A stretch of DNA of 64,000 nucleotides from Candidatus Multivoradales bacterium (GCA_965248925.1 CBDFLE010000005.1:1312001-1376000), one strand, 5' to 3'. Shown: positions 33,543-55,282, counted from the first letter of the stretch. The notes: generated from the sequence alone by a model not told the origin. A program made the numbers and translations.

Positions 33543-33546
33543 CAGA

Positions 33547-35244: not shown

Positions 35245-37949
35245 TCAGCTGGCCCGCAGGGCCTCGACGGTGTCGGTGCTTGCCGCCTTTAAGGCAGGTC
35301 CCAAACCAGCCAGGGCGGCGACTCCCAGCAGCAGAACCGCCATGGCGAGGAAGATCATCGGGTCGGTTGGCTCGACACCATAGAGCAACGACTCGACCGA
35401 TCGCGACACCACCAAGGCACCCACGCTGCCGAGGGCCAGACCGCAGCCGGCCAAGAGCAGGGTCCTGCCCACGATGCGTCGCAGAACTCCCGCCGCCGAC
35501 TCTCCCAATGCCATGCGGATGCCAATCTCGGGCAAGCGCTCGTTGACCGAATAGGAGAGCACGCCGTAGATCCCCAAAGCAGCCAGCAGCAGAGCGGTAG
35601 CCGCAAAGGCAATAAGCAATTGCAGGGTGAAGCGGCGCGGTGACATCGAACGCTCAACCACCCCGTCGAGGCTCTGGTATTCGCCGGTCGGCAAGGTCGG
35701 GTCTAGCCGGCTGATCGCCGCCGCAACGCTGGGCACCAGAGCAGTGGCCGCCAAACGCGATCGCACCACCATGTCAAGGGTCTGAAAATCACCATTCTGA
35801 GTGACCGGGAGATACATCTCCGAACCCGCACCCAACTCTAGAGACCGATGCCGCACATCGGCCACCAGCCCCACCACCCGATGCTCCGCGCCGTTGATCA
35901 CCATGATCTGGTCGAGGGCGCGCTGGCCGCCAAAGACCCGCTTGGCGCCAGTCTGATTGAGCATCACGACCCGCTCTTGGTCGCCATCGTCGTGGGCACT
36001 GAAGTAGCGGCCCGCCAGCAGCGGAATCTGCATCGATTGCAAATAGCGGCTATCGATCAAATGGGGGAAGACCACCGTCCACTCTTCACCATCCTGGTAC
36101 TCAACCCCCGGTGCCCGCACCGCCCAGGATCGATTGCGCCCCAAAGGCAGAGCATCCGTGAGGCCCACTGCCTCGACCCCAGGAATCGCTGTCACCGCCG
36201 TCAGCGCACGGTCATAGAAGGCGTTGACCTCCGCCAAGCTGTCGAGATTCTGCGGGGTGTTGATCTGCCAAGCATAGGCCCCAGCGGGCTGAAAACCGAG
36301 ATCGACATCGAGCACCCGCTGGAAACTCTTCAACAACAAGCCGCCGAAGACCAGCAAGACGCAGGCCAGGGCGACCTCGGCAATGACCAGACCCTCGCGC
36401 CAACGGGTACTGCGCCGAGTGGCACTCAATCCCCTGCCCGTGCCTTTGAAGGCAGCTGCCTCACTGCCGTTGGAAACCTGCAGGGCGGCACCAGACCCGC
36501 CGCCAAACCGACGACGAAAGTCAGCGCAGTGGTGAAGAGCAAGGCACCGCCGTCGACCGAGACCGAGCGCAAGAGTGGAATGCTCAGCGCGTTGTCGGAG
36601 GCCGCGAATTCGGTGATCGAAACCGCCAGCAGAAGACCGACCCCAGCACCCGCGGTCGCCAATAGCGAACTCTCGATCAACAGCTGACGCAGCAGCCGCC
36701 AGCGGGAGGCACCCAGAGCACTGCGCACCGCCATCTCGCGACTCCGCTTGGTGCTACTGGCCAACAGCAGGTTAGAGAGATTGACACAAACGATAAGCAT
36801 CACCGCTCCAGCCGCCGCCGCCAGCAGCAACATGGCGGAACGGAAGGGGCCAGCGATCTGCCCCTTGAGAGAACTCACCTTGGCTCCTAAACCCCAACGC
36901 TCTGGATCGTCCTTTTTCAAGGCCGCGAGCACCGCGTCGAGTTCGGCCTGGGCGCTGGCGACGGTGGCGCCGGGAGCCAACCGGCCGATCATCGATAGGG
37001 TATTACCCCAGCGGTCGGTCTGATCGCTGATCGGAAAGACGTGCAAGAAATCTACCCTCGTGCTGGGAGTGAAGATGGAGGCAAAGTCGAAAGATGGAGG
37101 CAGCACACCGACCACCTCGAGCGGGCCATTGCTGAAGGAGATCGTGCTACCGACCACCGCCGGATCGGCGGCGAATCGTCGCTGCCACAAGGCGTGGGAC
37201 AAAATCACCACCGGCGGGCCGTTGTCAGCCCCCTCTTCCAAGACGAAGGCGCGGCCATGGAGCGGCTGCACACCCAGCACCTGGAGGAAATCTTGGGCCA
37301 CCGCTGCGCCGACCAGCCTCTCGGGCTCGCCTTCCCCCACCAGATTGTAGCTGCGGTGCTCGAAGAAGGCGTTGTAGCCGGTGATTGCGGTGAAAGACTG
37401 GGTGCGATCACGGAAGTCGCGCAAGTTGCTGGTGCGCGAAGTAACTGCCGACATGCCGCCCACGCCATCGTTGGCAATCCACACCAGCCGCTCAGCTTCA
37501 GTGAGCGGTAACTGGCGCAGCATCAGAGGGCTCAAGACACTAAACACCGCGGTACAGGCGCCGATCCCCAAGCCGACGATCGGCACCGCGAAGAGAAACA
37601 AGCGCGGATCCTTGCGCACCGCGCGCAGGGCATATTTCGCATCCGAAATCCAAGCCGAAGGTCGCAATAAGTCGCTCACGCTCTCTCCTTTGATTTCCGC
37701 CACCACCAGCGAGCTGAGGGGCTGCCGGCGCTGCCGGCGATCACTCAATCCCAAACTGCAAGCCAACACCAATGCCTGGCGCCAGTACCAGAAGTAAGCC
37801 GTCAATGCTCCCCGCCGCCGTGCTAGCCGGCCACAGTCCTCGCTGAGATCACCGAGGATCGAGCGGGTAATATCGCTGGCGCCAAGGCAGCGCAGCAGCA
37901 GCCACTCTGCCCCCCAGGGGGGTCGCGGGATCTGCTGTAGGCTGCTCAC
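35245..37949 (-). pseudogene. ADOP-type duplicated ABC permease with one frameshift
   Basis: LGIGACTAVFS, CVNLSNLLLA, REMAVRSALGA, EIGIRMALG; halves join if one G is restored near 36486 (VPALQVS). Confidence 0.85.
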
Positions 37950-38272
37950 CGTGGGTCCATCATCGGCCCGAGCGCCGCGAAGAAACGCAGCAGAGTAGTG
38001 CGCGATGCCCGTGCCGCGCTGAGCCCTTCGGCGGAGACCCGCAGTCGGCGCATCGGGTGACCACCGCGTTCAGGAACTCCGCTAGGCTCGATCTCCCAGC
38101 TGATCAGTCTCTTGGCTTCGAGCCGGGCCAGGGTGCGGTAGAGCGCCCCGCGAGTTACCTTGCGGCCAGCGTTCTGCTCGAGGTCCCAGCGCACCCGATT
38201 GGCATAGGGCTCCTCTGCTTGGCGCAGGATCGCCAACAACACCAACAGCTCAAACTCACCCATCTTTGCCAT
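37946..38272 (-). CDS. PadR-family transcriptional regulator
   Basis: MGEFELLVLLAILR, GALYRTLARLEAK, ERGG; directly upstream of the ADOP permease. Confidence 0.9.
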   Translation of the reverse strand: MAKMGEFELLVLLAILRQAEEPYANRVRWDLEQNAGRKVTRGALYRTLARLEAKRLISWEIEPSGVPERGGHPMRRLRVSAEGLSAARASRTTLLRFFAALGPMMDPR

Positions 38273-38291
38273 GCGTTTCCTACCCTGATTT

Positions 38292-38341
38292 TTCAACTCT
38301 CACTCTAATTCTTCAACTCTCATGCGAAGCATACATTGTAT
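38292..38341. promoter_or_regulatory. Candidate padR operator/promoter elements
   Basis: TTCAACTCTCA at 38292 and 38312 (20-bp period); ATACA-T-TGTAT palindrome at 38331-38341. Confidence 0.45.
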
Positions 38342-38390
38342 ACCTCGAAGCCTCAGACAAGTTACAACTGGTCTAGGCAACCGTCTCGCT

Positions 38391-40463
38391 CTATGAGCTC
38401 GGCGCCTGCTGGCTGCCGAATCGGCCTGCCGCGAAAGTCTGCAGCAAGGTCGGCAACACCAGCAGGGACAGCACCAGTCCGGCGCCGACTCCCAGACCAA
38501 GAACTTGGGCAAAAGAAGCCAAACCCCGATGACTGGTCAAGGCCAGAGTGACGAAAGCGGCCAGGGTGGTGAGGGAGGTCAGGACGATGCTTCGACCGGT
38601 GCCTATCAGGGTGCTGTGGAGGTCACCTCGCTCCGAGCGGTAGCGGTGAACCAGGTGAATACCGTCGTCGACAGCGATCCCCAGCACCACCGGCAGAGCC
38701 ATGATATCGAGAGGATTGAAGGACAGCCCAAAGAGCTTCATCAGGCCGATCAGCGCGCTCACCGTCAGCCCGGTCGGCATCACCGCTAGCAAAGTCCAGA
38801 GCGGGTCGCGGAATACCGAGAAGACCCAGATCAGAAGCAGAGGAGCGCCCGCCGCAGCCGTCACCCACAAAGCTCGTTTTGATCGCTCGACCATGAATTG
38901 GCCGAGGAAGGGCATGCCGGTGGCTTGGCTGTCGATTGCCAGCATATGATCGATGAAAGTCTGCTGCTCCAGCGGGTCCCAGATGTCAGCCTGAGGATAA
39001 GCGTAGACCGCCAGTTGGCCGGCGGTGGATTCAAAGGCCCGCAGCAGGTCCGGCGGCAGCTCTGCCCGCACTCCCGGCAGCACTTCAAAATCGAGCATCG
39101 AACGCACTGTGCCCACGGTCTCGTCATCACTCAGTCGCCAGACCAGATCTTGTAGCTCTTGGCGTGAGCCAACGGTGAAAGCAGCCAACTCGGGTGACCA
39201 GCTCGACCGCCGCACCATCTCGCGCTCCAGGCGCACAGTCTCTGAGTCTACCGGCTGTAGATTGAGGTAGTCGGTGTCAAAAGACGGCAGCCCACCGAGC
39301 AGTCCCGTCAGGGCAGCTAGCACCAACAGCCAGGCCAGCGGCCGGCTTTGCAACGCCACCAAGATTCGGCCGAGGCGCCGCCCGCCACCAGCCCATGGCC
39401 GCAGCTGTCGCCCGCCAGTCCAGCTAAGACTTAGCAAGGCCGGCAGCACTGTCACCATCGACAACAGACAGATCACCACACCGGTGCCGGCGATCGCTCC
39501 CAATTCAGCGAAGCCACGAAAACCGGAGAGCTGCATTGCCCACAGAACCGAGGCGGTGGTCAGCGCGCTGCCGGCCAGGCTCGGCGCCAGCTCGCCCACC
39601 GCTCGTGGCACCGCCCGCGCCAGCACCAGGCCCTCGCCCAGCAGCTCCTCAGTCCGAGCAACAATGTGAATGCCAGAGTCTATGCCGAGGCCAAGAAGGA
39701 TCGAAGCAAAGAACGCCGACAGCAGAGTGAGGTGGCCAGGGTAGATGGCGGCGAATCCCACCGTCACAACAACCCCGAAAGCCAAGGCCAGGGTCGCGGC
39801 CAAGGGGCGACGGATATCACCAAAGGCAGTGGCGAAGAGCACCAGCACCAAGATCAACGACAACGCCGACAACCGGCCGATGTCACGCTGCACCAAGTTG
39901 CGATCGTCGAGAGCGAAACGCGGCATGCCGGTGGTTCCGGCTCTAACCTGGGTAGCCGCTAATTCCGCCTGCAAACGCTCCTCCACCCCAGCGACGAAGG
40001 GCTCCAGGGTCTCGACCCGAGAGTAAGCATCCTCCGGCTGGACGAAGAGAAATAGCAGTCCGCCATCCTCAGAACTCAGGTAAGGATCGACACCTGTCAC
40101 TTCCACCACCGCCGGATCGAGCGGCAGCCTGGCGAACACACTGCGCACGCCGGGGAGCTGTCGCAGAGCAACCTCCAGCCGGTCGGCGGCACTTCGCAAA
40201 CGGCTTTGATCAGCCCCTTCGAGCACTACCACCAAGCTGTTGGGAGTGCCGAACCGAGCAGCGAAGTCTTGAAACCGCTGCACTGGTGGCAGTTTGGTAT
40301 CGATCAAATCGAGGTTCGAAGTGCGCAGACTCAGCCGGGTCACGGCCAGTCCCAGGGATCCGCCCGCCAACAGCAAAGCCACCAGCAAGACGGCGCCAGG
40401 TTGCCGCACCGAGACTCGGGCGGCGACGGCGAGCATCCCAGCTGCGCGGCCCAGCCAGTTCAT
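38391..40463 (-). CDS. MMPL/RND-family lipid exporter (HpnN-like)
   Basis: ILLGLGIDSGIH and LGIAVDDGIHLVHRY in two TM halves; ATG overlaps the upstream TGA. Confidence 0.85.
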   Translation of the reverse strand: MNWLGRAAGMLAVAARVSVRQPGAVLLVALLLAGGSLGLAVTRLSLRTSNLDLIDTKLPPVQRFQDFAARFGTPNSLVVVLEGADQSRLRSAADRLEVALRQLPGVRSVFARLPLDPAVVEVTGVDPYLSSEDGGLLFLFVQPEDAYSRVETLEPFVAGVEERLQAELAATQVRAGTTGMPRFALDDRNLVQRDIGRLSALSLILVLVLFATAFGDIRRPLAATLALAFGVVVTVGFAAIYPGHLTLLSAFFASILLGLGIDSGIHIVARTEELLGEGLVLARAVPRAVGELAPSLAGSALTTASVLWAMQLSGFRGFAELGAIAGTGVVICLLSMVTVLPALLSLSWTGGRQLRPWAGGGRRLGRILVALQSRPLAWLLVLAALTGLLGGLPSFDTDYLNLQPVDSETVRLEREMVRRSSWSPELAAFTVGSRQELQDLVWRLSDDETVGTVRSMLDFEVLPGVRAELPPDLLRAFESTAGQLAVYAYPQADIWDPLEQQTFIDHMLAIDSQATGMPFLGQFMVERSKRALWVTAAAGAPLLLIWVFSVFRDPLWTLLAVMPTGLTVSALIGLMKLFGLSFNPLDIMALPVVLGIAVDDGIHLVHRYRSERGDLHSTLIGTGRSIVLTSLTTLAAFVTLALTSHRGLASFAQVLGLGVGAGLVLSLLVLPTLLQTFAAGRFGSQQAPSS

Positions 40464-41404
40464 CGTGGCGGCCCGCCGCCGACAGATCCGGCAGCCAACT
40501 GCGGCATCATCCAACGCAGGCCGGCAATCTCAGCAGCGCGGGCAAAGCGCGGCAGGGCCGAGGAGGGCCGATCGAGCGATAGAGTGAAGGTTCCGAAATG
40601 ACAAGGCACGACTTGCTCGACACCAAGAATCTTGGCCACTCTCACCGCCTCCTCCGGATTCAGATGGAATTTGGCCAGCGGAAACCGCGGCGCGTAGGCG
40701 CCGATCGGCAGCACCGCGACGCGCGGCTGATAGCGCTCAGCGATCACCGCAAAGTGCTCGCCGAAACCGCTGTCACCAGCGAAGTAGATGGCATCTTCCG
40801 GTGATCGGATGATGTAACCCAAGGCCAGCTGGCGGCTCGCCAAGGGGTGATAACGATTGCCATTGTGGGCCGCCTCGACGGCTATCACTTCCAGCTCTCC
40901 CAGCCGCAAACTCGAACCAGGCTCGAGGCTATCGATGCGGATAGCGGGATCGAAAACGCCCTCGAGATACGCGGCGGCCCCAGCGGGTACCAGCATCCGC
41001 CCAAGGCGAGGCACCGCCGCCAGGGTCGGCAGATCGAGATGGTCGTAGTGAGCATGACTAATCAACACCGCATCAAGCGGCCCTAGCTCTCCAGCCGCTA
41101 ATGGTGGAGCCATCAGCCGGCGACTCAGAGTGCAATGCCGGCTGAGGTTTGGATCGACCAGGATTCGCTGCCCCAACCACTCGACCAAGAAACCCGAATG
41201 TCCCAGCCAGTGCAACCGCGGCACCGGCGAATCACCCCGCCAGAGCACCGTTTCCCGAGGTCGCGCCGCCCTTGGGATCTCTTCCCAGCCGGTGGCGCCC
41301 TGCCAGTGTTGGAGAGGTGTCAACCAACCAAGCCAGCCTGCCGAGGCGAGAACTGCTGCCATTAAGATCGCGGCACCGATCAGGCGTCTTCGCTTACCCC
41401 TCAT
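40460..41404 (-). CDS. MBL-fold metallo-hydrolase (NAPE-PLD/RomA-like)
   Basis: WLGHSGF, ISHAHYDHLD, YFAGDSG, LPIGAYAP, PCHFGTF; N-terminal membrane anchor. Confidence 0.88.
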   Translation of the reverse strand: MRGKRRRLIGAAILMAAVLASAGWLGWLTPLQHWQGATGWEEIPRAARPRETVLWRGDSPVPRLHWLGHSGFLVEWLGQRILVDPNLSRHCTLSRRLMAPPLAAGELGPLDAVLISHAHYDHLDLPTLAAVPRLGRMLVPAGAAAYLEGVFDPAIRIDSLEPGSSLRLGELEVIAVEAAHNGNRYHPLASRQLALGYIIRSPEDAIYFAGDSGFGEHFAVIAERYQPRVAVLPIGAYAPRFPLAKFHLNPEEAVRVAKILGVEQVVPCHFGTFTLSLDRPSSALPRFARAAEIAGLRWMMPQLAAGSVGGGPPR

Positions 41405-43457
41405 CCCAGCCTCCTGAAGGTTCAGCGCTGGCCGGACCGCCAAGTTCACGACTCTTGCTGAGCTGCTGAACCCAGGCCACCAGATCCGCCACCTCGCGGT
41501 CCGGCAAAGTCTCATGACCAGGCATCGAAGTGCCCAGCAGGCCGAATTTCACCAGCCGCGCCAAAGCCAGATCCGCAGAATCCGCGCCGGGCCCCCAAGA
41601 CACTGCCCAGAACTCCCCCTTGGTGAGATCCATGGCCGGACGAAAGACCGCCGCCGCCAGCGGTCCATGCCCCCGCCCATCGCTGCCGTGGCAGGCCGCG
41701 CAATAGCTCGCGAACAGCACCGCGCCGCGCTCGCCGCTACCGCCCCTGAAGCTCTCGGCCATCGGATGGGCTGCCACCTGCGCCGCCCAAATGATGAGCG
41801 GTGCCGCCCGCAAGCTCGTCAAATAGGCCACCAAATCACTACCCCGCCGGCCATCGCCAACGAATAGATGCCGGTAGGACGGCATTCTCGACGCTGGCTC
41901 CAGGGTTCGCGGATCGAGCAGATGGAGACGGTGCCAAGTGGCCGAGCGGCGCAAGCCTGCGTTGCTGAGATCGGGACCTTGGCGGCGATTGCCATACAAC
42001 GGGGGACGCTCATTGGCTCCGACTCGGTCCTCCCCGTTCGACCCCGGCAAGGGTCCCCACAACTCAGTGTCCCTGAGCAAGGGGCGGACGTATTGCGAGT
42101 GACAGCCGATGCACCCTTCGGCGATGTAGACCTGGCGACCGCCCGCCACCGCCGCGTCCAACCGCGCTTCAGCTGTCGGGTTTGGCTCCGACCCGCCACC
42201 GCCAAACATCCCCAGGGCGAGGAGGCCGCCAGTGAAAGTCAGGCCATGGCGGCGTAGCAGCCCGGCGAGCCGGCCACTGCCCAGCGCCCAAGCCAGCAGC
42301 AGCAACACAGCAGCGATCAGCACAAAACTCCGCGGAATCTGCTCGCGACCTTGTGCCATGGCAATTCCCAAGCCCGAACCCAACCAGCCCGCGACACCGA
42401 ACAACAACGCTGCGCGAAATCTCCCTGGCACCCGCCCGGGTGCTTCGCCGCCGGCCGAGGGGTAGACTACTAGCGCCACCGAGTAGAACGAGATTCCCAT
42501 CGCATACAACGAGCCCGATATCGCCGCCGCGACACCTCCGAGACTCAGCAAGCGAAAAGCTACCGCAAAGAGAGTGACGGCGCTGAGCAACAAGCCGTGG
42601 AAATTGCCGCGATCGATCCGCCAGCCAGCGATCAGCGCCGCTGCCAAATGGGTCCAACCGATAACTATCTTACCTTGCCCCGCCCAAGTCGCCCCTCGCA
42701 GCACCGGACTTTGCTGGATGATGGCAAATGCCGCTGAGTCGAGCCAAATCAGCGCCAAGAAGGCCAGCACCACAGCGGCAAAACCCAAGCCAGCGAAATC
42801 TCTAGTCATCAGCCCTGCTGGACGGCTTAGCGGCTCGCCGACCGGTGGCTGCGCGGTCTCTCCCCGTTCGAGAAAGGGAGTCGCCGCCAGGCCCGCCAGG
42901 CAAGCCAGCGACGCCGCTACACTCTGCTCCACCGGCGAACCTGCGAAGAGAAGCGGCACATTGCTCAGCAAATATGCCAGGCCGGTTCCCAGGCCAACTC
43001 CCAACCCCAGCCTGCGACCGCCGAGCAGAAATCGCAGACGATAAGCCAGCGAGACCGTGGCCAGTGCCGTCGAGGCACCGATCAGTACAGCGATGGCGAT
43101 CAAGGCGCTCACCGCCGTACATGTCGGTGCCAACAGCGCCGCCAGCGCGCCGCCGGCCAACCCAGCCCGCAGCAGACGCAGGGTCGGCACCTTGCCCAAG
43201 GCCCAGGCGGCACCGAGACTGGTCAACAAGCCCGCAAAGCCCATCGCCCCCATCGCTCGCTGAAGCCAGAGGACCGAGTTCAAGCGCAGTTCGAGCACCT
43301 GGAGGAAACCAAACTGAGCATAGAGCAAGAAGAAGATGTAGACCGCGGCGATCACCACCACGCCGGCAACCCAAGGCGCCAGGCCAACACTCGCAGGTGC
43401 TTCGAGGACTTTGCCCCTCGCCCCGTTGTCGCGGTCAGAATCTAGCGCAGGACTCAT
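41394..43457 (-). CDS. Multi-pass membrane domain fused to a CcoO-like cytochrome and a second c-type cytochrome
   Basis: About 12 hydrophobic helices; YIAEGCIGCHSQYVRP, RRQGPDL, WHRLHLLDPR, SRMPSY; YCAACHG...GTSMPG. Confidence 0.82.
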   Translation of the reverse strand: MSPALDSDRDNGARGKVLEAPASVGLAPWVAGVVVIAAVYIFFLLYAQFGFLQVLELRLNSVLWLQRAMGAMGFAGLLTSLGAAWALGKVPTLRLLRAGLAGGALAALLAPTCTAVSALIAIAVLIGASTALATVSLAYRLRFLLGGRRLGLGVGLGTGLAYLLSNVPLLFAGSPVEQSVAASLACLAGLAATPFLERGETAQPPVGEPLSRPAGLMTRDFAGLGFAAVVLAFLALIWLDSAAFAIIQQSPVLRGATWAGQGKIVIGWTHLAAALIAGWRIDRGNFHGLLLSAVTLFAVAFRLLSLGGVAAAISGSLYAMGISFYSVALVVYPSAGGEAPGRVPGRFRAALLFGVAGWLGSGLGIAMAQGREQIPRSFVLIAAVLLLLAWALGSGRLAGLLRRHGLTFTGGLLALGMFGGGGSEPNPTAEARLDAAVAGGRQVYIAEGCIGCHSQYVRPLLRDTELWGPLPGSNGEDRVGANERPPLYGNRRQGPDLSNAGLRRSATWHRLHLLDPRTLEPASRMPSYRHLFVGDGRRGSDLVAYLTSLRAAPLIIWAAQVAAHPMAESFRGGSGERGAVLFASYCAACHGSDGRGHGPLAAAVFRPAMDLTKGEFWAVSWGPGADSADLALARLVKFGLLGTSMPGHETLPDREVADLVAWVQQLSKSRELGGPASAEPSGGWDEG

Positions 43458-43460
43458 GCT

Positions 43461-43868
43461 CTACCGCTGCCGCCACAACTGCCGCAGCCACCCCAGCTGG
43501 GCGATCGCCAGCAGCCAATCCGTGGCCATCACGGTGATCCATGGCAGCGATAGGCCACCGCTCAGCAGGCTGCCGCCGATGAACAGCGCCACCGCCGTAC
43601 GCAGCAAAGCGGTGATCTCGAAAATTGTCCGCAAACGCCCCAGGCGATGACCGCGGTCGAGCAGAAAGGGCAACAGGTAGGCAGCGCCCACCGCAGCGAC
43701 AAACACCCCAACAAAGCGCAGGAAGACGGTGTCAGATGGCGGATCCGAGACACCGAACAACCCCACTGTCAACCTTGGAGCAACGATCAGGGCCAGGCCG
43801 GTACAGCCGTCCAGTAGGCCGACCGCCAAGCTGAAAGTCTCCACTTGTCGGGTGAGACTCAATTTCAT
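43461..43868 (-). CDS. Small 4-TM membrane protein
   Basis: Hydrophobic ORF; ATG overlaps the upstream TGA. Confidence 0.75.
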   Translation of the reverse strand: MKLSLTRQVETFSLAVGLLDGCTGLALIVAPRLTVGLFGVSDPPSDTVFLRFVGVFVAAVGAAYLLPFLLDRGHRLGRLRTIFEITALLRTAVALFIGGSLLSGGLSLPWITVMATDWLLAIAQLGWLRQLWRQR

Positions 43869-45190
43869 GCCACCACCTCCTCCGCTGGCGAGCGGGACCA
43901 CGCCGCCACCAGCCATTCAGCGGATGCGGCCAACATCGCCACCCCGCCCCCCAGGCGCAGCCCGTAGAGCAGATCGACAGCTCCCCGCCCGCCGAACAAG
44001 AAGTTGGGCCGGACCGCTTCGAGCGCTCCGAGGATGGTCAAAGAGAGCACCAATAGCAGAGTTCCTCCATGCCACAGCACAAAGGCCCGGCGATGCTGAA
44101 AGAGGCCCGCCAGGGGGGTCTCCCGGTGCATTCCTTCGAGCAGAAGGACAACAAAGCAAGTCAGCATCCCAGCCATCGCCAGATGGGCGTGAGCTACCAG
44201 AGCATTGGTGAATTTCAACCCTTCGAGCAGGCCGGGCAGAAAGGCGACCACCCCACTGACAATCAAGAAACCGCCCCAACCAGCAAAGGCAGAAAGCCAC
44301 CACCTGCCCCCGAGTAACGCCGGAAAGCAGCGCAGATGGCGGCGCAAAAGCGGCCACCACACCACCAGGCTGCACAGGCTAGCCACCTGTAGCCAATCAC
44401 GGTGGCTGTGATCGGCGTGATCGAGCAGCGCGAACCAAACCAGGTGCAGGCCCAACACCACGCCAATCCGCCGTGCACGCCGACCACCCTCGAGAGGCTT
44501 CAAACCAACCAGAAATGGATAAGCGAAGATAATCCCCACCAATGCCAACGAGCTGCCCAACAAGCTGGTTCCCGTGGGCCCGCCACTGATCGGATTGATC
44601 AGCGGGTAGACCGCCGGGCTGGCAACCCAGAACATCACTAGCGGCACCACTGACAGGGCGAGCAGCAGCAGCCCCTTGGCCAGCTTGCCAAGCGGGGACG
44701 ACCAGCCGGTTGCAGAACCTCCCCGGTTGGCTTTCAGCTGAGCGGCGAAACCCACCCACAGAGTCAAAGCCAGGCAGCCCAGAGCCACTGCCAGCAGCCC
44801 TCGCGCGGGGCCGCGCCATTCGAGGAAAATTTTCCCGCTGGACTGTCCAGCAAGCCAGGAAACGGCACCGAAGAGCAGGCTTCCGGACCACACCGAGACG
44901 GCCAGCAATGCCCCCCTGGAGCCGTCCCCGGGCGGCCGAAACAAGCGCAGCAGCACCCCCACCATCGGCAAGCTGACCCAGCCGTAGAGCTGCAAGTTGA
45001 AATGCACTGGCAACCATCGACCGTAAGTCAAAGCACCGGTCAAGCGCCCGAGTTGGGGAAACAGCAACAAGAGGGCGAGCCACACTCCGACCGCGTTGCC
45101 AACCACCAGCCAGGTCAGACTGTGCACCGTGACCTGCGAGGCGAGCGGCGAGTTACTCCCTCGGCGCGCCGCCGGGACGGCCGTACTCAT
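43865..45190 (-). CDS. Divergent CcoN-like (heme-copper oxidase subunit I fold) protein
   Basis: TYGRWLPVHFNLQLYGW (cf. FGRLRPLHTN) and FTNALVAHAHLAMAG (cf. HVH helix X); about 12 TM. Confidence 0.72.
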   Translation of the reverse strand: MSTAVPAARRGSNSPLASQVTVHSLTWLVVGNAVGVWLALLLLFPQLGRLTGALTYGRWLPVHFNLQLYGWVSLPMVGVLLRLFRPPGDGSRGALLAVSVWSGSLLFGAVSWLAGQSSGKIFLEWRGPARGLLAVALGCLALTLWVGFAAQLKANRGGSATGWSSPLGKLAKGLLLLALSVVPLVMFWVASPAVYPLINPISGGPTGTSLLGSSLALVGIIFAYPFLVGLKPLEGGRRARRIGVVLGLHLVWFALLDHADHSHRDWLQVASLCSLVVWWPLLRRHLRCFPALLGGRWWLSAFAGWGGFLIVSGVVAFLPGLLEGLKFTNALVAHAHLAMAGMLTCFVVLLLEGMHRETPLAGLFQHRRAFVLWHGGTLLLVLSLTILGALEAVRPNFLFGGRGAVDLLYGLRLGGGVAMLAASAEWLVAAWSRSPAEEVVA

Positions 45191-45206
45191 CCCTTCACAC
45201 CTTCCT

Positions 45207-46229
45207 CTAAGCCGCCGCCAGGCGCTCTTCCATTTCGCGACACTCGTTCTCCAGCACCTCTTGCAAGCGCTCCAGGGGCCGCCACAGGATGGCATCAGCC
45301 TGATTACTCAGGCCAGCAATGATCTCCCTGCCTTCGTCGAGCAACCGGTTGACCTGCGCAGCCGCCTGCCGGACCCCCAACGCCTGAGCCAGATTGGGTC
45401 GCCCGAGCAGCCGATCGCGACCGGTTGACTTGCCAGCTTCTTGGCCCGACATCATCTGGTCCTTGAGGTCATCGAGAGCCTGATAGCCCAGGCCCCAGGT
45501 CAGCGCCAAACCCTCCAAGCGAGCTAACTCGCCAGCATCGCAGCCAGCGACCAAGGCCGGCAGCACCAGGGTCAGACGCACCAGGGTCACCGTCTTGCCC
45601 TCCGCCACCTGGCGGGCTTCCACCGCACCGCCGCGAAAAAAAAGGTCTTTGGACTGACCATTCAAGATACCCGCCACACCGAGGCAATCATCCACCAGGC
45701 GCGCCGCCGTTTGTTGACACTCAGCCGGCAACGGACCCAGCACCCGCCACAGCAGGTCGTAAGCGCGGGTGATCAAGGCCAACGAGCCGAGGATCGCTGC
45801 CCCTTCGCCATACACCCGGTGCGGGCAAGGCCGGCCGCGCCGCTCGACCGCATCGTCCATCGCCGGTAGATCGTCGAGCAGCAATGATGCGGTATGAAAG
45901 TACTCGACCGCAATGGCCAGCTCGAGAGCCGGCTGAGCGGCTTCGCCGTGGGCCCGCATCAAGCCGTAAATCACCTGCGCCCGCAGCAAGCCACCCGGAT
46001 GGTCGAGGGTATCGACCAAAACCCCGCGCAAATGCTCTTCGGTACCTGCGCCAACCTGCAGCAGATCGCGAAAGCCCGCCTCGACAAAGCGCCGGGGCAG
46101 GGGATCGAGGACGTTCCGCGGTGACTTCTCCGCCTTCGGAAAGCGGCTCGGAGCCGACTTTGCACCGAGTCCGGGCAGCGGCCGGGGCCGGGGCCAGCGA
46201 TCCAAGTCGCGTACTTCGCTGAGCGACAT
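45207..46229 (-). CDS. Polyprenyl diphosphate synthase
   Basis: EYFHTASLLLDDLPAMDDAVERRG, GQSKDL, GKT, YQALDDLKD. Confidence 0.92.
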   Translation of the reverse strand: MSLSEVRDLDRWPRPRPLPGLGAKSAPSRFPKAEKSPRNVLDPLPRRFVEAGFRDLLQVGAGTEEHLRGVLVDTLDHPGGLLRAQVIYGLMRAHGEAAQPALELAIAVEYFHTASLLLDDLPAMDDAVERRGRPCPHRVYGEGAAILGSLALITRAYDLLWRVLGPLPAECQQTAARLVDDCLGVAGILNGQSKDLFFRGGAVEARQVAEGKTVTLVRLTLVLPALVAGCDAGELARLEGLALTWGLGYQALDDLKDQMMSGQEAGKSTGRDRLLGRPNLAQALGVRQAAAQVNRLLDEGREIIAGLSNQADAILWRPLERLQEVLENECREMEERLAAA

Positions 46230-46240
46230 CCTCTGGCCTC

Positions 46241-46807
46241 CTAGTGCAACGGGCCACGAGCTCTTACGCTGACTTCGACAACTTTGCCCACTCGCAGAAA
46301 GAGCAGGCTCGGATTTTTCATTCCCCACTCCACATAGGGAACAGAGAAAGTAGTCTCGGCATCGAAGGTCTCTCCATCGAGGGTGAACTTGGCTGCCATC
46401 GACAAAGGGTGCTCATCGCCATGGATAGAAATGGTGCCAAAAATCTCTACTTCGCCGCTACCATCCGCCGGCAGCGTACCCTCGAAACGGCTCGGCTCGA
46501 AGACGATCCAGGGAAACTTCTCGGTTTCGAAAACCTTTTTGTGCATCGTCGCATCGCGTTTCTCGTTACCGGTTCTCGCCGATTTCAGAGCGAGCTTCAA
46601 CATGCCGCTGGCCTTGCTGCTCTGCGAATCCAGTCGCAGCTCGCCTTCGCTGAGTTGCAGCTGCCCTTCGACATCGTGGCCGGTCGCCGGCACATGAAAA
46701 GAAACCTCGGTCGCATCCAAGTCGAAGGTGATTATGCGTTCGACAGCAAACATCGAAGGAGCCAGGCAGAGCAGTCCAAAGTAACAGGTTAAGAGGATTC
46801 GGATCAT
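46241..46807 (-). CDS. YceI-family polyisoprenoid-binding protein
   Basis: Signal peptide; TGNEKRDATM, KFPWIVF, GTISIHG. Confidence 0.85.
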   Translation of the reverse strand: MIRILLTCYFGLLCLAPSMFAVERIITFDLDATEVSFHVPATGHDVEGQLQLSEGELRLDSQSSKASGMLKLALKSARTGNEKRDATMHKKVFETEKFPWIVFEPSRFEGTLPADGSGEVEIFGTISIHGDEHPLSMAAKFTLDGETFDAETTFSVPYVEWGMKNPSLLFLRVGKVVEVSVRARGPLH

Positions 46808-48264
46808 TGTCGATTCTCCATGCTAGATGATTCGAGAACAGCGCCAGATAGGTTTTCTACCTCGGCACCGAAAGACTTTAGGATCGAGTGCAACTTTAAT
46901 TCCGTTTCGCGGTACTCACGCCGCGGGTCAGAACCACTGACGATGCCGGCGCCGGCAAACGCCCGCACTTCGCGTCCGTCGATCAGAGCACTGCGCAGGG
47001 CGACGGCGAATTCACCGTCGCCAGCGCCATCGAACCAGCCGATCGGCGCCGCATACCATCCCCGTGGGGCGGCCTCGTGATCGCGGATCCACTGCCGCGC
47101 GTACTCGGTTGGCACGCCAGCAACCGCCGGCGTCGGGTGCAGAGCAGCCACCAACCGCAGCACATGGGTCGGAGTGCTCAGCGAGCCGGCGACCGGCGTC
47201 ACCAAGTGCTGCAAGCCGCGCAGCACCTTTACCCCTGGCTCGGCAGCGATCATCAAACGCTCACAGAAAGGTGCCAGCTGCCGCTCGATGGCTTGGACCA
47301 CCAACCGGTGCTCGTGGCGCTCCTTGGCGCAGGCAGTGAGCCGGCGTGCGGCGGCGGCACCCAGCACCGCCGAACCGGCTAGCGCTTCGCTGACCACTCG
47401 CCGACCACGCTTGGCCACCAAGCGCTCGGGAGTGGCGCCGAGAAAACAAGCACCGCCGTGGCGACAAGCAAAGCGAAGAGTACCGGCGGCCGGCAACCGG
47501 CGGAGCACAGCGGTGGTATCGGGCGGTTGCTGGAAGGTCACTCGGGCACCGTGGGCAGCGACCACCTTCTCCACCTGCGAACTCGCTATCGCCTGCCCGA
47601 TAGCCGCCACCGCCGACTCGAAGCGAGCCCTCGGAGGCGGCTCCAGGAGTGGTGTTGCGACCCCTGGAGCCACCACCCTTGGCTCGGGCGAGTCCAGCAC
47701 TTCGAGCAATTCCAAGGTGGTGTCGACAAGCTGGCGATAACTTCCACTTGCCAGCTCCGCGCTGCGCACCGCGAGGGTCAAACTGGCCCCCTGCGCGGTG
47801 GCGCGGTACAGCAATCGGGGCAAGACAAAGAGGGCATCTCCGAATGGCCGCCAAGGCGCCAGATCCGCCGCTCCGGGGTCAAAAGAAAAGCCGCCGAACA
47901 AGCGCGGCTGATGGCCTTGCGCCGCTGCCGAGCAGTCCTCATGGCGATCACTGTGGAATTCGGAGATCAGGACCTCCGCCTGCCGCTGAATGCTCTCGAA
48001 GCGATCCTCGCCGACAGCACTCAGTCGGTGGGCCGAGCCAAGACCGGCCACAGCCACACCATCACCAGCATTCCAAAAAACACTAGCGGAGCGCGGAAAC
48101 AAGTCTAGCTAGCGTTCCGCCGCGGTCACCGGCGCCGGTATCGTCATCAGAGTGGTTCCACGACGGCCCACCGCCCGCTGCAGGCAGCGCAGCAAAAAAC
48201 GCCGAACCTCGGGATCTTGCTGGATCGCTGCTGGGGCCGCGGACAGGCTCGTCGCTGAGGGCAT
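46804..48264 (-). CDS. menF: Isochorismate synthase (MenF-like); in-frame TAG at 48109-48111 separates the N-terminal 51 aa
   Basis: EKVVAA, FLGATPERL, ALAGS, KERHEH, LHPTPAVAG, RGWYAAPIGW, AVALRSAL, AGAGIV; AAGGAG RBS before ATG 48264; catalytic part intact from TTG 48102. Confidence 0.82.
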
Positions 48265-48545
48265 CGGACTCCTTCGGAGCTGTACTCGGTGCGGCAACAA
48301 TGCCGACCGGATATCGCTAAGAGGGGGCGAGCAGGAAGATCCTTCGCGGTTTCTGAAGCGAAATCGAGATCAGAGAAAGGGAAAAGTTAGAAAGGCCCGC
48401 ACGGCAAGCGAGCGGCACCACCGTCGCTGCACCACCGTCGTTCAGTCCTACACCTCCGAACCTCAATCAACCAGCGAAATTCCAGGCCAGTTTCCGAGCC
48501 CCCAGTGGTGGGAAAGAGCGCCGCCGACGGAGCGCTAGCGCCACC

Positions 48546-51500
48546 TCAGTACCGCTTCCACAGTTTGATCCCAATCCCCTCGCGGGTCAGTCGGAAGAGC
48601 TTGCCGAGGGGCGCGCAGTACGGACTGTGGTGAGCTGGTTGATCATTGATGACGTCCACCGCCAGACGGCTGCGGGGCGAGGACTCACGGGTCAAGAGCA
48701 CTTTCAGCACGGCCCCGTACTCCGCCAGTCGGGGGTGCTCCGGTTCGATGTTGAATTGCAACTCAGCGGCATGCCGCTTCGACACCAACACCAACCGACT
48801 GCCATGGAAAACCAGATGGGTCGATGGTAAACGAGCTGGCAAATTGCCTTTGAGTGCTTCCAGGTCAACGCCGCACAACGACGCCGGATCATTGGCCGCC
48901 AGCCAGTAGATAACATCTTCGGGAAGGCCCTGGCGCAGCTCGCACAGTGCCCCTGGGGAGGCAAACTGCAACCCCGGTATGCCGTCAAAGAACTGCCCCG
49001 CCAACACTTCGCCGGACAACTCCATCAACCGCAGAGCGCGGAACACCCGTGACCAGCGCAACGCAGGTAGCTCACGAGCTAGCAGCTCGCGAAACACCAC
49101 CCCGTAGCGCTCGACCAGCCAGCGGGCACGATCCTTGGCCAGTTCTTCGCGCTCCAAGGCATCGAGGGGTTGGCTAGCGTTGGCTTCGAGCGCTCGCCAG
49201 CTATCGAGCCGCGGCCCGGTTGGGCGCCAACGATCAAGACCCCGGCGCCGCCCGCCGCGGCGAGCAGCGGCACGAGGCTCTTGCGCCGGCAGTTCGAAGC
49301 GCTGAGCGATTCCCTGGCGAACCGCCGCGAAGCTGCCACTGGTGACTCGGCCGCTCCAGGCCAAGCGCCACAACTCGGCAGCAGCCGCGGCGAGTTCGAG
49401 ACCAGCGCCGGCAGCAATCTCTGCCAACTCCAACCAACCACCACCCGGTGGCAACAGCTGAGCGCGGGCGGCGCTCTCGGCCACCGCCGACTCACCCTCT
49501 GCCGGTGGCTGGTGCAGGAGTTCCAAGTCGGAGGCGAGAACGAAGCTCAGCCGCCCCTTGCCCACCCCGGTCCACAGCAGCTGAGTCTCCCGCAGCAGGC
49601 TGTCGAGCCAAGCTTGATAGTAGGGTTCTAGCCGCGCCGGCAAGAAGTTGGATTCCCAGCTCTCGACCGGCGCCGGGTAGCCGAACAAGCGTTCCAAACT
49701 GTGCTGTAGGTCCTCCATCGCTGAGCCAGGCTCGGTGAGTCCTTGATGCCGAGCTAGCCACAGCGGCAGCTGCTCCAGACCCAGGGGCTCGAAGGCCGGC
49801 CGCGCCGCCAGCCGCAGCCAGCGAAGAAGAATCTCTAGGTTGTCGGCATCGCAGATCTCTACTGCCTCGACCCCCTGTTGCAACAAATCGACCACCAGCC
49901 GCTGGCCCTCGGCCAGTTCGGTGAGAACCCGCTCCAAAACGCTATCGTCAAAACCCCAGACCTGCCCGATTAGCCCCTGTGCCAGCGGCCCGTGAAAACG
50001 CAGCCACTCGCTCAGCACCAGCGCTAGCTCGGCTGCCGCTTCGGCGGCCGAGCGCCGCCCGATCAGCCGGTCAAGACGGCGCCGCGCTGGCTTCGGCGCG
50101 GCCTGCCTCGGATCGTCCACCCCTACCAGCTCGATCTGCTCGACCGTCAGCCCCAAGGCGTCGAGCAAATAGGGCAAGCGGTCGGTAGACACCACCACGG
50201 CTTCTTTCGCCCCCGGCAAGCACACTCCGAGAACTCGCTCGCCAAGCTCCTCGATCAGACCCGCCGGCTGCTCACCGTGGTCACTTTCCACCGCGGCGAG
50301 CAGCTCGCGCCACTCTTCTCGCGACAGCAGCAGGCGCTCATCGATCCAGTCGGCAAGGTCGTCGCCGGGACGGGGCGCATATCCCGCCAAGGTGCGCTGC
50401 ACCTTGCGCCGGAAGCGCTCCACCAGAGGGGCGGGCAACCGCGGCCGCAGCTGGGCCGAGAACACCAGTTCGCGCAATAGATCAGGGCGCACCCCGGTCC
50501 TCAGCTCTCCCCTCGGCGAGTCGTCCTCGTACATCAGGAAATTAGTCTCTTGCCATAACAAGTCAGCGGCAAAAGGCGATGGCACGGTGGTGCGCACATC
50601 GGCGATTTCTACTTCGCCGGCCGCCACCTCGGTGAGTCGTAGCTTCAAGGTTTCCAAGTCGAATTCGTCTTGCAGGCAGCTACGCCAAGTCTCGACCAGG
50701 ATGGGAAAGTCGCCGTAGCAGGCCACCCCATCGAGCAACTTCTTGGCCCGCTGACGAATCACCCACAGAGGCAGGCGCTGGCGGAAATTTTGCCGCGGCA
50801 GCAGCAGGGCAGTGGAAGCAGCAGCCCGGAAGCGGGCGCCAAAGAAGCCGGTGGCTTCGAGCCGCTGGCGTAGCAAACGCTCGATGCTCTCTGGCGGTAC
50901 CAGGGCGAATAGCTCCTCGGCACTGACCTGCCCCGGCAGGATCAGTAGCACGTTGTCGTCGCTGTGGTAGACCTCCAGATGATCGTCGTGGGCCTGGTCC
51001 CAGGCCGCGGCCAGGGCGGTGGCGAAGGGCCGGTTGACGGTGCCGCCCCAAAAGGTGTGGAGAATTACCCGCCGACGCCCGCCTTGAGCACCGTCCCAGC
51101 AATGCTCGACCAACAGCCGGCGACGATGCGGCAGTTTGCCGGTGGCCGCCTGCTGCTGCTGCAGAAACTCCACCAGCCGGTCGGCGGCGGCGGCCTCCAG
51201 ACAATGCCGGTCGATCAGCCGCTGGCGAAACTCGGGCCGGCCGAGGTGGTCATCGGCCTCTTGTAGCAGCCGCGCCACCTTCTCAGAGAGAAAAGCGCCA
51301 CGATCCTGAGCATCGGCCCGCCAAAAGGGGGCCAACGCCGCGCCACCATGCCCGGGCACCACCAGCACGTCGTTGTGGGTGATCTTGCGGATCCTCCACG
51401 CTTGGGTGCCGAGCACAAAGCTGTCGCCCACCGAACGCTCCCAAACAAACTCCTCATCCAGCTCGCCGAGCTTGGCCATCGACCGCTCTACTCGCAAGGT

Positions 51501-53045
51501 GAAATAGCCGCGGTCGGGAATCGTGCCACCGGCCAAGTAGAGCAGTCTCTCGACGCCCCGGCGGGCGCGCACCGTGCCATCGACTCTGTCGATACGCAGC
51601 CGCGGTCGCAGCTCTCGAATGCGGCTGTCGGCATACCGTCCGGCGAGCATCTCCAGCACCAAATCGAGCTGCCGGCGACGCAGCTGGTGGTAGGGCTGGC
51701 TGGTGCGCAAGAAGGCGTAAAGCCGGTCGACCTGCCATGTTTCGGCGACGACCATCGACAGCACCACCTGGGCGAGCACGTCGAGGGGCTGGCGAATCGG
51801 CTGCATCGGCTCGATGTCCTGATCGAGAATCGCTCGCGCCACCACCGCCGCGTCGAGGAAATCTCGGCCATGGGAGGGATAGATAACCCCACGGCTGGTC
51901 TCCCCCACCCCATGGCCGGCCCGGCCGACTCGCTGTACCGCCGCCGAAATCGCCCGTGGGGTCTGGATCAGCAACACCTCGTCGAGCGCCCCGATATCGA
52001 TGCCCAACTCCAGCGAGCTGGTGGCGACAATGGCACTGAGTTCGCCATCCTTGAGCCGCCGCTCGACCACCGAGCGCACCTCGCGCGACAGCGAGCCATG
52101 GTGCGAATAGGCCAGATCTTCGTCCTGCTGGTCGTTGATCAGCCGGGTGATCTTCTCGGTCAGGCGACGGCTGTTGGCGAACAGCAACGTCGAGCGGTTG
52201 GTCAGGATTTGACGCTTGAAGTCGCGAGCCAGGCTCTCCCACACCACCTCGTCCTCCGCCTCGACGGCGGCCGGCGGCCGCGGATGGCGCACCCGGATGC
52301 GGTAATCCTTGCCGGCGGTCGAGCGCACCACCCGCACCTGCCGCGGCCGGTAGGAAGGCTCGCCGCCGGTCTCGATCAGCTGGTAGCCACCGACAAACGC
52401 CGCCACTTGATCGAGGGGGCGCACGGTGGCGGAGATCGCCAGGCGCTGGAAATCCCCCGCCAGCGGCACCAAGCGATCGACGGCGGTGATCAAGTGGGTA
52501 CCGCGCTTGCTGGCGACGACGGCGTGGATCTCGTCCAAGATCACCGTTTCGAGACCACCGAGCAGCTCGCGCCCACTCTTCGAGGTGAGCAGAATATTGA
52601 GGCTCTCGGGAGTGGTGATCAAGATTTCCGGCGGCCGGCGCAGCATCTTGCGGCGTTCGGACTGAGGCGTGTCGCCGCTGCGCACCAGCGCCCGAATCTC
52701 TGGCGGCTCACCGCCCTCAGCGCGAAAAATCTCGACCAGCTCGGCGAGGGGCGAAGACAGATTACGCCGAATATCGGTGTTGAGCGCCTTTAGCGGCGAG
52801 ATGTAGAGCACCCGCGTGCGGCCCACCTGCCAAACCCCGGTGAGCAGTCGGTCGAGGGCCCAGAGGAAAGCGGTGAGGGTCTTGCCACTGCCGGTGGGCG
52901 CGCTGACCAGCACATGTTCGCCAGCGGCGATGTGCGGCCAGGCGCGCTGCTGAATGTCGGTCGGCTGGCCAAAGCGCTCGGCAAACCAGCGCCGCAGCCG
53001 CGGATCGAAAGCCGCCAGCGCGGCCTGCGGATCGCTCGCCGGCAC
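48546..53045 (-). CDS. lhr: Lhr-family ATP-dependent helicase
   Basis: PTGSGKT, ITTPESL, DEIH, SAT, HHGSLS, QRVGRAGH, GTIPDRG, C-terminal winged-helix region; GTG 53045 preferred start. Confidence 0.93.
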   Translation of the reverse strand: MPASDPQAALAAFDPRLRRWFAERFGQPTDIQQRAWPHIAAGEHVLVSAPTGSGKTLTAFLWALDRLLTGVWQVGRTRVLYISPLKALNTDIRRNLSSPLAELVEIFRAEGGEPPEIRALVRSGDTPQSERRKMLRRPPEILITTPESLNILLTSKSGRELLGGLETVILDEIHAVVASKRGTHLITAVDRLVPLAGDFQRLAISATVRPLDQVAAFVGGYQLIETGGEPSYRPRQVRVVRSTAGKDYRIRVRHPRPPAAVEAEDEVVWESLARDFKRQILTNRSTLLFANSRRLTEKITRLINDQQDEDLAYSHHGSLSREVRSVVERRLKDGELSAIVATSSLELGIDIGALDEVLLIQTPRAISAAVQRVGRAGHGVGETSRGVIYPSHGRDFLDAAVVARAILDQDIEPMQPIRQPLDVLAQVVLSMVVAETWQVDRLYAFLRTSQPYHQLRRRQLDLVLEMLAGRYADSRIRELRPRLRIDRVDGTVRARRGVERLLYLAGGTIPDRGYFTLRVERSMAKLGELDEEFVWERSVGDSFVLGTQAWRIRKITHNDVLVVPGHGGAALAPFWRADAQDRGAFLSEKVARLLQEADDHLGRPEFRQRLIDRHCLEAAAADRLVEFLQQQQAATGKLPHRRRLLVEHCWDGAQGGRRRVILHTFWGGTVNRPFATALAAAWDQAHDDHLEVYHSDDNVLLILPGQVSAEELFALVPPESIERLLRQRLEATGFFGARFRAAASTALLLPRQNFRQRLPLWVIRQRAKKLLDGVACYGDFPILVETWRSCLQDEFDLETLKLRLTEVAAGEVEIADVRTTVPSPFAADLLWQETNFLMYEDDSPRGELRTGVRPDLLRELVFSAQLRPRLPAPLVERFRRKVQRTLAGYAPRPGDDLADWIDERLLLSREEWRELLAAVESDHGEQPAGLIEELGERVLGVCLPGAKEAVVVSTDRLPYLLDALGLTVEQIELVGVDDPRQAAPKPARRRLDRLIGRRSAAEAAAELALVLSEWLRFHGPLAQGLIGQVWGFDDSVLERVLTELAEGQRLVVDLLQQGVEAVEICDADNLEILLRWLRLAARPAFEPLGLEQLPLWLARHQGLTEPGSAMEDLQHSLERLFGYPAPVESWESNFLPARLEPYYQAWLDSLLRETQLLWTGVGKGRLSFVLASDLELLHQPPAEGESAVAESAARAQLLPPGGGWLELAEIAAGAGLELAAAAAELWRLAWSGRVTSGSFAAVRQGIAQRFELPAQEPRAAARRGGRRRGLDRWRPTGPRLDSWRALEANASQPLDALEREELAKDRARWLVERYGVVFRELLARELPALRWSRVFRALRLMELSGEVLAGQFFDGIPGLQFASPGALCELRQGLPEDVIYWLAANDPASLCGVDLEALKGNLPARLPSTHLVFHGSRLVLVSKRHAAELQFNIEPEHPRLAEYGAVLKVLLTRESSPRSRLAVDVINDQPAHHSPYCAPLGKLFRLTREGIGIKLWKRY

Positions 53046-53046
53046 T

Positions 53047-53838: not shown

Positions 53839-53964
53839 CGGGCGGCGGGTGAAGGGTCGCTGGCTATTCAAGATCGGGGCTCCGGGCAATTGGCGGTCAG
53901 GTGGCGAGCGCCTATTCTACGCTCTCGCTCCGCACCCTGACTGTTCTGGAGTACGATTTGCCGC

Positions 53965-55274: not shown

Positions 55275-55282
55275 TTCCTAGT

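Follow-up and report, generated by a model that had tools for sequence, protein, structure and literature searches.

A 64,000-nucleotide stretch of a Candidatus Multivoradales bacterium genome (GCA_965248925.1 CBDFLE010000005.1:1312001-1376000; hereafter the window) carries a co-oriented eight-gene operon on its minus strand, running from 48264 down to 38391, in which isoprenoid and lipid-export genes stand beside an oxidase-derived redox module. In the order that the original prediction gave, the genes encode an isochorismate synthase of the MenF/EntC type (46804..48264), a YceI-family periplasmic lipocalin (46241..46807; PF04264, E 2e-20), a short-chain trans-prenyl diphosphate synthase of the farnesyl/geranylgeranyl diphosphate (FPP/GGPP) type (45207..46229; PF00348), a CcoN-like 12-transmembrane (TM) subunit with a heme-copper oxidase (HCO) fold, here called protein N (43865..45190; recognized by profile and fold matches, with no Pfam match), a 4-TM protein of no Pfam family (43461..43868), a fusion of a major facilitator superfamily (MFS) domain, a TM anchor, a CcoO/FixO domain and a cytochrome c (41394..43457; recognized from the FixO and cytochrome c Pfam families, AlphaFold2 (AF2) and Foldseek), a NAPE-PLD-like hydrolase of metallo-beta-lactamase (MBL) fold (40460..41404; NAPE-PLD in the PDB, E 1e-24) and an MMPL/RND exporter most like HpnN/BstA (38391..40463; TIGR03480 301 bits, cut-off 752; PDB HpnN, E 3e-21). 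The overlaps and small gaps that had been described were borne out, the junctions from the menF-like gene to the MMPL gene measuring -4, +11, +16, -4, +3, -11 and -4 nt, and a further 118 nt separates the MMPL gene from padR. A Pfam scan of 44 open reading frames (ORFs) of the window likewise found no further men gene and no prenyltransferase among them; an Rfam scan of the window gave no match, a sigma-70 promoter scan over 37900-48700 returned 0 sites, and terminator-like sites stood near shuffle level.

Profile alignments and a structure model together indicate that protein N is an HCO-fold protein with its heme ligands and without a conserved binuclear site. Its AF2 model (pLDDT 91, pTM 0.91) has 12 TM helices and finds its best structural match, in Foldseek and in a second fold comparison, in cbb3 CcoN (TM-score 0.68-0.70, Z 27.1, rmsd 4.1, 403 aligned residues), with the nitric oxide (NO) reductase cNOR next (Z 25-26); its PDB sequence matches are cbb3 CcoN chains only (profile E 2.5e-9), and hhalign against CcoN gives a probability of 98.4. 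Relatives came from a word search (410 among 8000 candidates scored) and from a profile search of cluster representatives (867, 328 and 214 proteins at E 1e-3, 1e-10 and 1e-30), and columns were read against four CcoN reference proteins in 102 diverse homologues, 119 near relatives and 80 locus rows (79 related loci plus the window, one short match having been dropped). Heme ligands H63 and H334 are kept in all 102 homologues, and H336 in 99. The CcoN motif QWWYGH aligns to GGPTGT in N, so that the helix VI copper histidine becomes T208 in the window, a position occupied by His in 10 of the 102. The register after helix VII is ambiguous, and both the hhalign register and an alternative were scored: the full histidine triad of the copper centre (CuB) appears in 0 and 2 of the 102, respectively, in none of the 119 and in 0 or 1 of the 80 rows. 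No tyrosine exceeds 30% in helices VI-VII, where the likeliest position for the cross-link tyrosine, 253, is Phe in the window (F253) and Tyr in 17/102, and the glutamate of a non-heme iron site (FeB), sought at residues 205-216, occurs in 2/102, 0/119 and 0/80. Invariant or nearly so are a GG[AP]TG..LxxS segment that includes T206 and S213, together with K120, Q268, K326, M339, E391 and R412. Lacking a conserved CuB triad, cross-link tyrosine and FeB glutamate, N fits no described oxidase or NO reductase family; the original description of a CcoN-like gene thus holds for profile and fold but not for the copper site. Since the binuclear site is not conserved, there is no support for the suggestion that the module serves as a dedicated electron sink, if by this a terminal oxidase that reduces O2 is meant; a role outside respiration, in the handling of lipids, is in keeping with the missing CuB ligands.

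The residues around the former copper site differ among clades. In one group of marine Opitutales, H208 is retained together with Y253 and H258 (4/80 rows; 6/102), possibly a relic of the old copper site. Eight loci with His208 (L027, L033, L045, L048, L057, L062, L065 and L072) all have Asn263 and none has His249, while His263 is found in 66 of the remaining 72 rows, a possible compensatory swap in one clade. Two clusters in the ESM Atlas, one from Chloroflexota with COX1 in 46% of its members (score 0.92) and one from Bacteroidota (TM-score 0.79), may be intermediates between CcoN and the protein N family. A tblastn search of N against plasmids gave no match.

The predicted fusion of a membrane segment with CcoO and cytochrome c was confirmed in its domains, and its membrane part turns out to be a 12-helix MFS fold. 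The AF2 model resolves these 12 TM helices (about residues 26-394), a 13th anchor helix and two soluble domains, the CcoO/FixO monoheme domain (C449-H453, M525) and a second, class I cytochrome c (C586-H590, M645). Foldseek places MFS transporters at the top of the matches to the membrane part, and the FixO domain best matches CcoO in the PDB (E 2e-34), with the RxGPDL motif kept. Relatives of the fusion number 608 among 8000 candidates, many with an MFS Pfam tag, and both CxxCH motifs with their distal Met are present in 126/126 aligned full-length fusions. Invariant polar residues (Y162, N166, D240, H270, Y325, S326, W358, S361) in helices expected to line the cavity suggest that the MFS domain is a working transporter. 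A copper importer resembling CcoA/CalT, for which PMC6362234 gives MxxxM in TM7 and HxxxM in TM8, was considered and rejected: MxxxM occurs in 0/126 and HxxxM in 1/126 fusions, with an invariant Asp240 in TM7 and His270 in TM8. The missing copper-import motifs are consistent with N having no CuB to supply. The 4-TM protein, shaped like DUF4345/DUF4267 (TM-score 0.65-0.70) and with polar D20, T86, R90 and D117 invariant or near-invariant, is joined to the C-terminus of N in five of the eight proteins inspected.

Scanning GTDB genomes yielded 250 relatives, each from a different genome, among 276 pattern matches, and we analysed the best 80 loci; because the scan pattern required the HxH motif, that motif is not independent evidence in these 80. 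Verrucomicrobiota contribute 46 of them, Acidobacteriota 28 and Bdellovibrionota 2, with the others from unassigned bins, the nearest relatives of the window locus being Acidobacteriota bins. Forty-eight are well flanked (at least 5 kb upstream and at least 6.5 kb downstream), the other 32 being cut by contig ends. Across the 48, CcoO is present in 48, the 4-TM protein and YceI in 47 each, the prenyl synthase and MFS domain in 44 each, and an exporter in 47, as MMPL (23) or an ABC permease (24); neither exporter occurs in the remaining one, and in none of the 80 do these two unrelated types occur together. The genes therefore co-occur well beyond the window, and the recurrence of this core in Acidobacteriota, Verrucomicrobiota and Bdellovibrionota is an arrangement far from chance. 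The association at the heart of the original prediction, tying an isoprenoid synthase, YceI and a lipid-type exporter to the oxidase-derived module, is one of near-obligate partners; MMPL, by contrast, though present in the window, is an exchangeable part, as is the MBL hydrolase (25/48). The second cytochrome of the fusion is absent in 10/48. Other variable partners are UbiA, a BstC-like protein and a methyltransferase (9 of the 48 each) and IDI (6), and over the best 80 loci UbiA occurs in 11, IDI in 7 and a weak BstC-like gene after MMPL in 11. The UbiA is MqnP-like, scoring above the TIGR01475 cut-off and below those of the MqnP models; the methyltransferase is weakly MenG-like, and IDI exceeds its own cut-off.

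Around the related loci, 200 of 235 candidate flanking ORFs were scanned and 21 others treated separately, the rest being shadow frames or housekeeping neighbours. The flanking genes are variable, and the 200 include no men, carotenoid or hopanoid gene, so that a carotenoid or hopanoid cluster was rejected; neither in this set nor among the recurrent families is there a ccoG, ccoH, ccoI, ccoS, SCO or heme O synthase gene. Pairwise identities of N and its partners are correlated (rho 0.54-0.65), which reflects kinship and was not accepted as co-evolution. The tree of N was built with IQ-TREE in its quick mode, which warned of long branches in the CcoN outgroup, and for that reason we claim neither a root nor a transfer.

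The chorismate enzyme, by contrast, does not belong to the core. The menF-like gene was correctly assigned to its family (TIGR00543 302 bits, cut-off 225), but its frame, starting at 48264, is interrupted by an in-frame TAG at codon 52 (48111-48109), which splits off the N-terminal 51 codons and leaves an open frame at 48102-46804. As the 51-codon piece aligns with seven homologues, themselves intact, and TAG is the stop codon of four other operon genes, we regard the interruption as a nonsense change or a sequencing error, not recoding. Isochorismate synthase occurs in 7/80 loci (5/48 well-flanked), in two neighbouring groups of the N tree around the window, fused behind the polyprenyl synthase in three of them (L007, L011, L020) and never in the same locus as UbiA; it is a clade-specific add-on outside the core.

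YceI proteins bind isoprenoids and quinones (PMC9113575), and the window's YceI, with an N-terminus that by eye resembles a signal peptide, is likely a carrier of a prenyl cargo. The synthase has both Asp-rich motifs intact, the first as DDxxxxD, and its best PDB matches are FPP/GGPP synthases. In 62 of the 64 matched synthases the first motif is preceded by Ala-Ser at positions -5/-4, a CrtE-like pattern, although small residues there can permit longer chains; family and motifs are plain, and the predicted product is most likely C15-C20, with GGPP favoured. The NAPE-PLD-like phosphodiesterase has an N-terminal membrane anchor and in L011 is joined after the cytochrome c. The MMPL protein scores below its cut-off on the other curated HpnN/BstA model as well (252 against 1400 bits), and by inference from its relatives it may work like HpnN/BstA. 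Most Verrucomicrobiota have in its place a MacB/LolC-type ABC exporter whose permease matches PDB 7W78 (E 2e-8), MacB and Lol permeases being about equally close; 7W78 is HrtB. Both exporter families lift lipophilic cargo out of the inner membrane.

A GTTCAY-N5-GTTCAY repeat with an 11-bp period lies upstream of yceI, just before a -10-like hexamer, in 37/57 loci, against a mean of 1.7 and a maximum of 6 in shuffled controls. Response regulator and kinase matches occur in 35/48 well-flanked loci, and the box is found in 28/32 of those with an own-family OmpR-type regulator versus 1/16 without, a difference not independent of phylogeny. Since the box also precedes detached IDI and second yceI copies (L052, L058, L061, L012, L057) and LTA-synthase-like/PAP2 genes, the regulon takes in the supply of isoprenoids. 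Heavy-metal sensor models give the sensor kinases their highest scores, which stay below cut-off, and 21 of 27 full-length kinases examined have ExxE/D after TM1, recalling the metal-sensing motif of ColS, which lies near TM2 instead (PMC4074579). The window itself has no two-component system, and the box is absent from it at one mismatch and from upstream of the operon at two. Four loci of the window's neighbourhood that also have no two-component system (L002, L007, L014, L021) carry an extracytoplasmic function (ECF) sigma factor and a FecR-like gene beside the operon.

Taken together, these observations lead us to propose, tentatively and as the best of several readings, that the operon serves under envelope stress to synthesize an isoprenoid lipid of short chain length, to handle it by redox chemistry and to export it on YceI; the lipid would probably be a quinone resembling menaquinone-4, or else a prenol. 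The synthase, aided by IDI in some genomes, would make a C15-C20 prenyl diphosphate, most likely GGPP, to be used directly or attached to a naphthoquinone-type ring; the add-ons (isochorismate synthase, or an MqnP-like prenyltransferase with a methyltransferase) may point to a menaquinone-4-like product. The MFS domain could flip this cargo into the outer leaflet, and the membrane-anchored hydrolase might take off a phosphate group there. N, CcoO and the extra cytochrome c would form a heme wire (b3, b, c, c) in which a Gly/Ser/Thr-rich segment replaces the copper site, so that the open face of heme b3 would serve the lipid cargo and not four-electron O2 reduction, the complex passing electrons between the cargo and a periplasmic cytochrome c. 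If the c hemes have high potentials, as they do in cbb3, thermodynamics would favour the direction in which the cargo is oxidized. MMPL or the ABC exporter, judging from family function, would then move the product from the inner membrane onto YceI and across the periplasm, and in most genomes, though not beside the window copy, an OmpR-type two-component system whose sensor bears an acidic helix would induce the operon. A more specific version is less probable: that the HCO scaffold has become a copper-free, heme-only lipid-modifying enzyme (a dehydrogenase, oxygenase or peroxidase) complexed with an MFS flippase, two c hemes and a phosphodiesterase, and that in Acidobacteriota and Verrucomicrobiota this complex builds an isoprenoid lipid or short-chain quinone not described before, which YceI then carries to the outer membrane.

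Several observations weigh against the export proposal. A ring-making or prenyl-transferring gene is absent in 34/48 loci (isochorismate synthase 5, UbiA 9), and the core therefore does not fix the product; in the window, moreover, the isochorismate synthase is interrupted. Four loci (L025, L026, L067, L073) keep N, the 4-TM protein, CcoO, YceI and the ABC exporter without the synthase, and L043 has no exporter. Exporter type and box presence largely follow phylogeny, so that locus counts are not independent events. Finally, the subfamily of N to which the window copy belongs keeps H249 and H263 at about 92%, and there they could form a non-canonical metal site.

Of the alternatives, the one that survives best, though we consider it unlikely, is an antioxidant or redox shuttle like LcoA-BcnA, in which no new lipid is tailored and a YceI-borne short-chain quinone is recharged, or lipid peroxides are reduced, at the open heme b3. 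It draws on the LcoA-BcnA defence against peroxidation, where yceI is genetically linked to a membrane cytochrome with two hemes (PMC9113575), on the two b hemes that N is predicted to hold, on the add-ons pointing to quinone supply and on the envelope-type two-component system and box. LcoA is, however, a cytochrome b561 of another fold, and LcoA-BcnA includes no exporter, MFS protein, synthase or phosphodiesterase. The columns of N, searched for the invariant distal His or Arg of peroxidase chemistry, hold none, and the reduction of menaquinone by c-type hemes would run uphill.

We give a rather low probability to the idea that N remains a catalytic oxidase or NO reductase with a rebuilt metal site (H249, H258, D260, H263), the synthase supplying a quinone or a prenylated heme. 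The fold, the CcoO docking domain and the c hemes are intact, the two subfamily histidines and the H208, Y253 and H258 of marine Opitutales would suit such a site, and eNOR provides a precedent for geranylgeranylated heme As (PMC11214002). Yet across the wider family H249, H258 and H263 are poorly kept (52, 65 and 67 of 102, with Asn in place of His), the FeB glutamate is as rare as noted above, the maturation and heme O synthase genes are missing from the recurrent families and scanned flanks, and the exporter, YceI and hydrolase are left unexplained.

Lower still we place heme or metal detoxification of the HrtBA-HssRS kind, in which N would be a heme-binding sink or sensor and the prenyl chain would serve heme modification or membrane protection. 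The 7W78 match of the ABC permease speaks for it, as do the heavy-metal leaning of the kinases and their ExxE/D motif; the 11-bp GTTCAY repeat also resembles the HssR box. Similar boxes are used by unrelated OmpR regulators, however, the permease matches MacB and the Lol permeases about equally well, an HpnN-like MMPL stands in for the ABC exporter in half of the loci, and isochorismate synthase, MqnP-like UbiA and IDI find no explanation. For the HssR box, PMC6305404 confirms the existence of a direct repeat and no more. An ordinary menaquinone locus beside an unrelated or decaying cbb3 oxidase, to which the interrupted menF-like gene adjoining the polyprenyl synthase region might hint, is very improbable and was rejected, being contradicted by a core conserved in three phyla, by scanned flanks without men operon genes and by the many invariant residues of N, which are at odds with decay.

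Other features of the related loci deserve mention in their own right. A variant in Lacunisphaera and Oleiharenicola (L022, L025, L026, L040, L073), without the synthase and, where visible, without the MFS domain, has as neighbours a Tll0287-like heme protein, multiheme cytochromes c and cNMP-binding 4Fe-4S and FAD/2Fe-2S proteins, and may be rewired for electron transfer. A coupled loss of synthase and MFS was judged too weak a pattern, resting on 3/4 loci that are all close Lacunisphaera relatives, with L067 and L068 as exceptions, one in each direction. A secreted protein of about 160 residues without a Pfam match (thioredoxin-like by eye, with no Cys) occurs in L061 (15371-15871, minus strand) and 11 other loci; its gene is frequently a neighbour of yceI or IDI and lies close to the regulator box. 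In L009, L010, L018, L024 and L046, a FadL/TodX-like outer-membrane channel follows divergent two-component genes (upstream, minus strand) and is a candidate for the outer-membrane step of the cargo.

Elsewhere in the window, all on the minus strand, an ADOP-type duplicated ABC permease (35245-37949) follows padR (37946-38272) and is broken near 36490 by a frameshift that leaves two ORFs, which together with the isochorismate synthase TAG hints at assembly errors or local decay. Upstream of the operon, 48546-53889 encodes an Lhr helicase and a membrane protein without annotation that by eye resembles a rhomboid protein, a pair not conserved beside related loci. At 54903-59680, a 1465-residue LysM protein, helical and repetitive in its middle part and ending in a nucleotidyltransferase domain, precedes a 123-residue ORF and looks like a bacterial polymorphic toxin with its immunity gene, and a lower-GC block of three genes at 31348-34665 (a ParB-like or unknown protein, an unknown protein and a DNA methyltransferase) is possibly a defence or restriction-modification island.

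If the export proposal is true, it would represent a non-respiratory use of the heme-copper scaffold and a natural test of heme b3 without copper, in a gene set common to many soil, sediment and marine bacteria; YceI, for which the physiological cargo is under debate, would also gain a defined set of ligand and partners. Relatives of N and the fusion carry database names such as 'cbb3-type cytochrome c oxidase subunit I/II', so genomes of Thermoanaerobaculia and Opitutales may be credited with microaerobic respiration too readily. The existence of cultured carriers (Haloferula luteola, L064; Opitutaceae D2-102, L061, and MBA3-11, L052) makes the lipid-handling claim testable.

The literature searched, which included few subscription papers, contains no description of this gene combination. 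The set shares with cbb3 CcoNOP the N fold and three heme histidines, the CxxCH, distal Met and RxGPDL of CcoO and a second c-type heme, and departs from it in having no conserved CuB triad or cross-link Tyr, CcoO placed behind an MFS domain, an extra 4-TM subunit, isoprenoid and lipid-export partners and no maturation genes nearby. In PMC11214002 the members of the HCO superfamily are enzymes that act on O2 or on nitrogen oxides and whose metal centre is coordinated by a conserved set of histidines, and among the 12 families described there gNOR is called the first with one active-site His replaced. N shares its fold with cNOR/qNOR and with eNOR, sNOR, gNOR, nNOR, bNOR, NOD and the putative N2O reductase, and resembles cNOR in its cytochrome c second subunit and its lack of an active-site Tyr; the families there described nevertheless keep the metal-binding histidines, whereas that of N has neither a conserved triad nor the FeB Glu. 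A classical men operon differs in its menD/H/C/E/B/A genes, absent among the 44 window ORFs and the 200 flanking ORFs of related loci. The HpnN/BstA-like MMPL and the weak BstC-like gene (11/80) resemble parts of the systems in which HpnN transports hopanoids and BstABC sterols, but the scores are below cut-off, no hopanoid or sterol synthesis genes lie near and the exporter is replaceable by ABC. The FLEET locus of Listeria and Lactiplantibacillus (DmkA, DmkB, Ndh2, PplA) is, according to PMC9888254, likewise a redox locus with its own quinone-synthesis genes, but it is flavin- and Ndh2-based, monoderm and without homologous redox parts. LcoA-BcnA (PMC9113575) offers a yceI gene linked to a membrane heme-b protein, a proposed quinone cargo and stress-type regulation; where that system has, upstream of yceI, a gene for a cytochrome b561, a family not found among the recurrent families of our loci, the present one has an HCO fold accompanied by c hemes, a prenyl synthase, an MFS domain, a hydrolase and an exporter.

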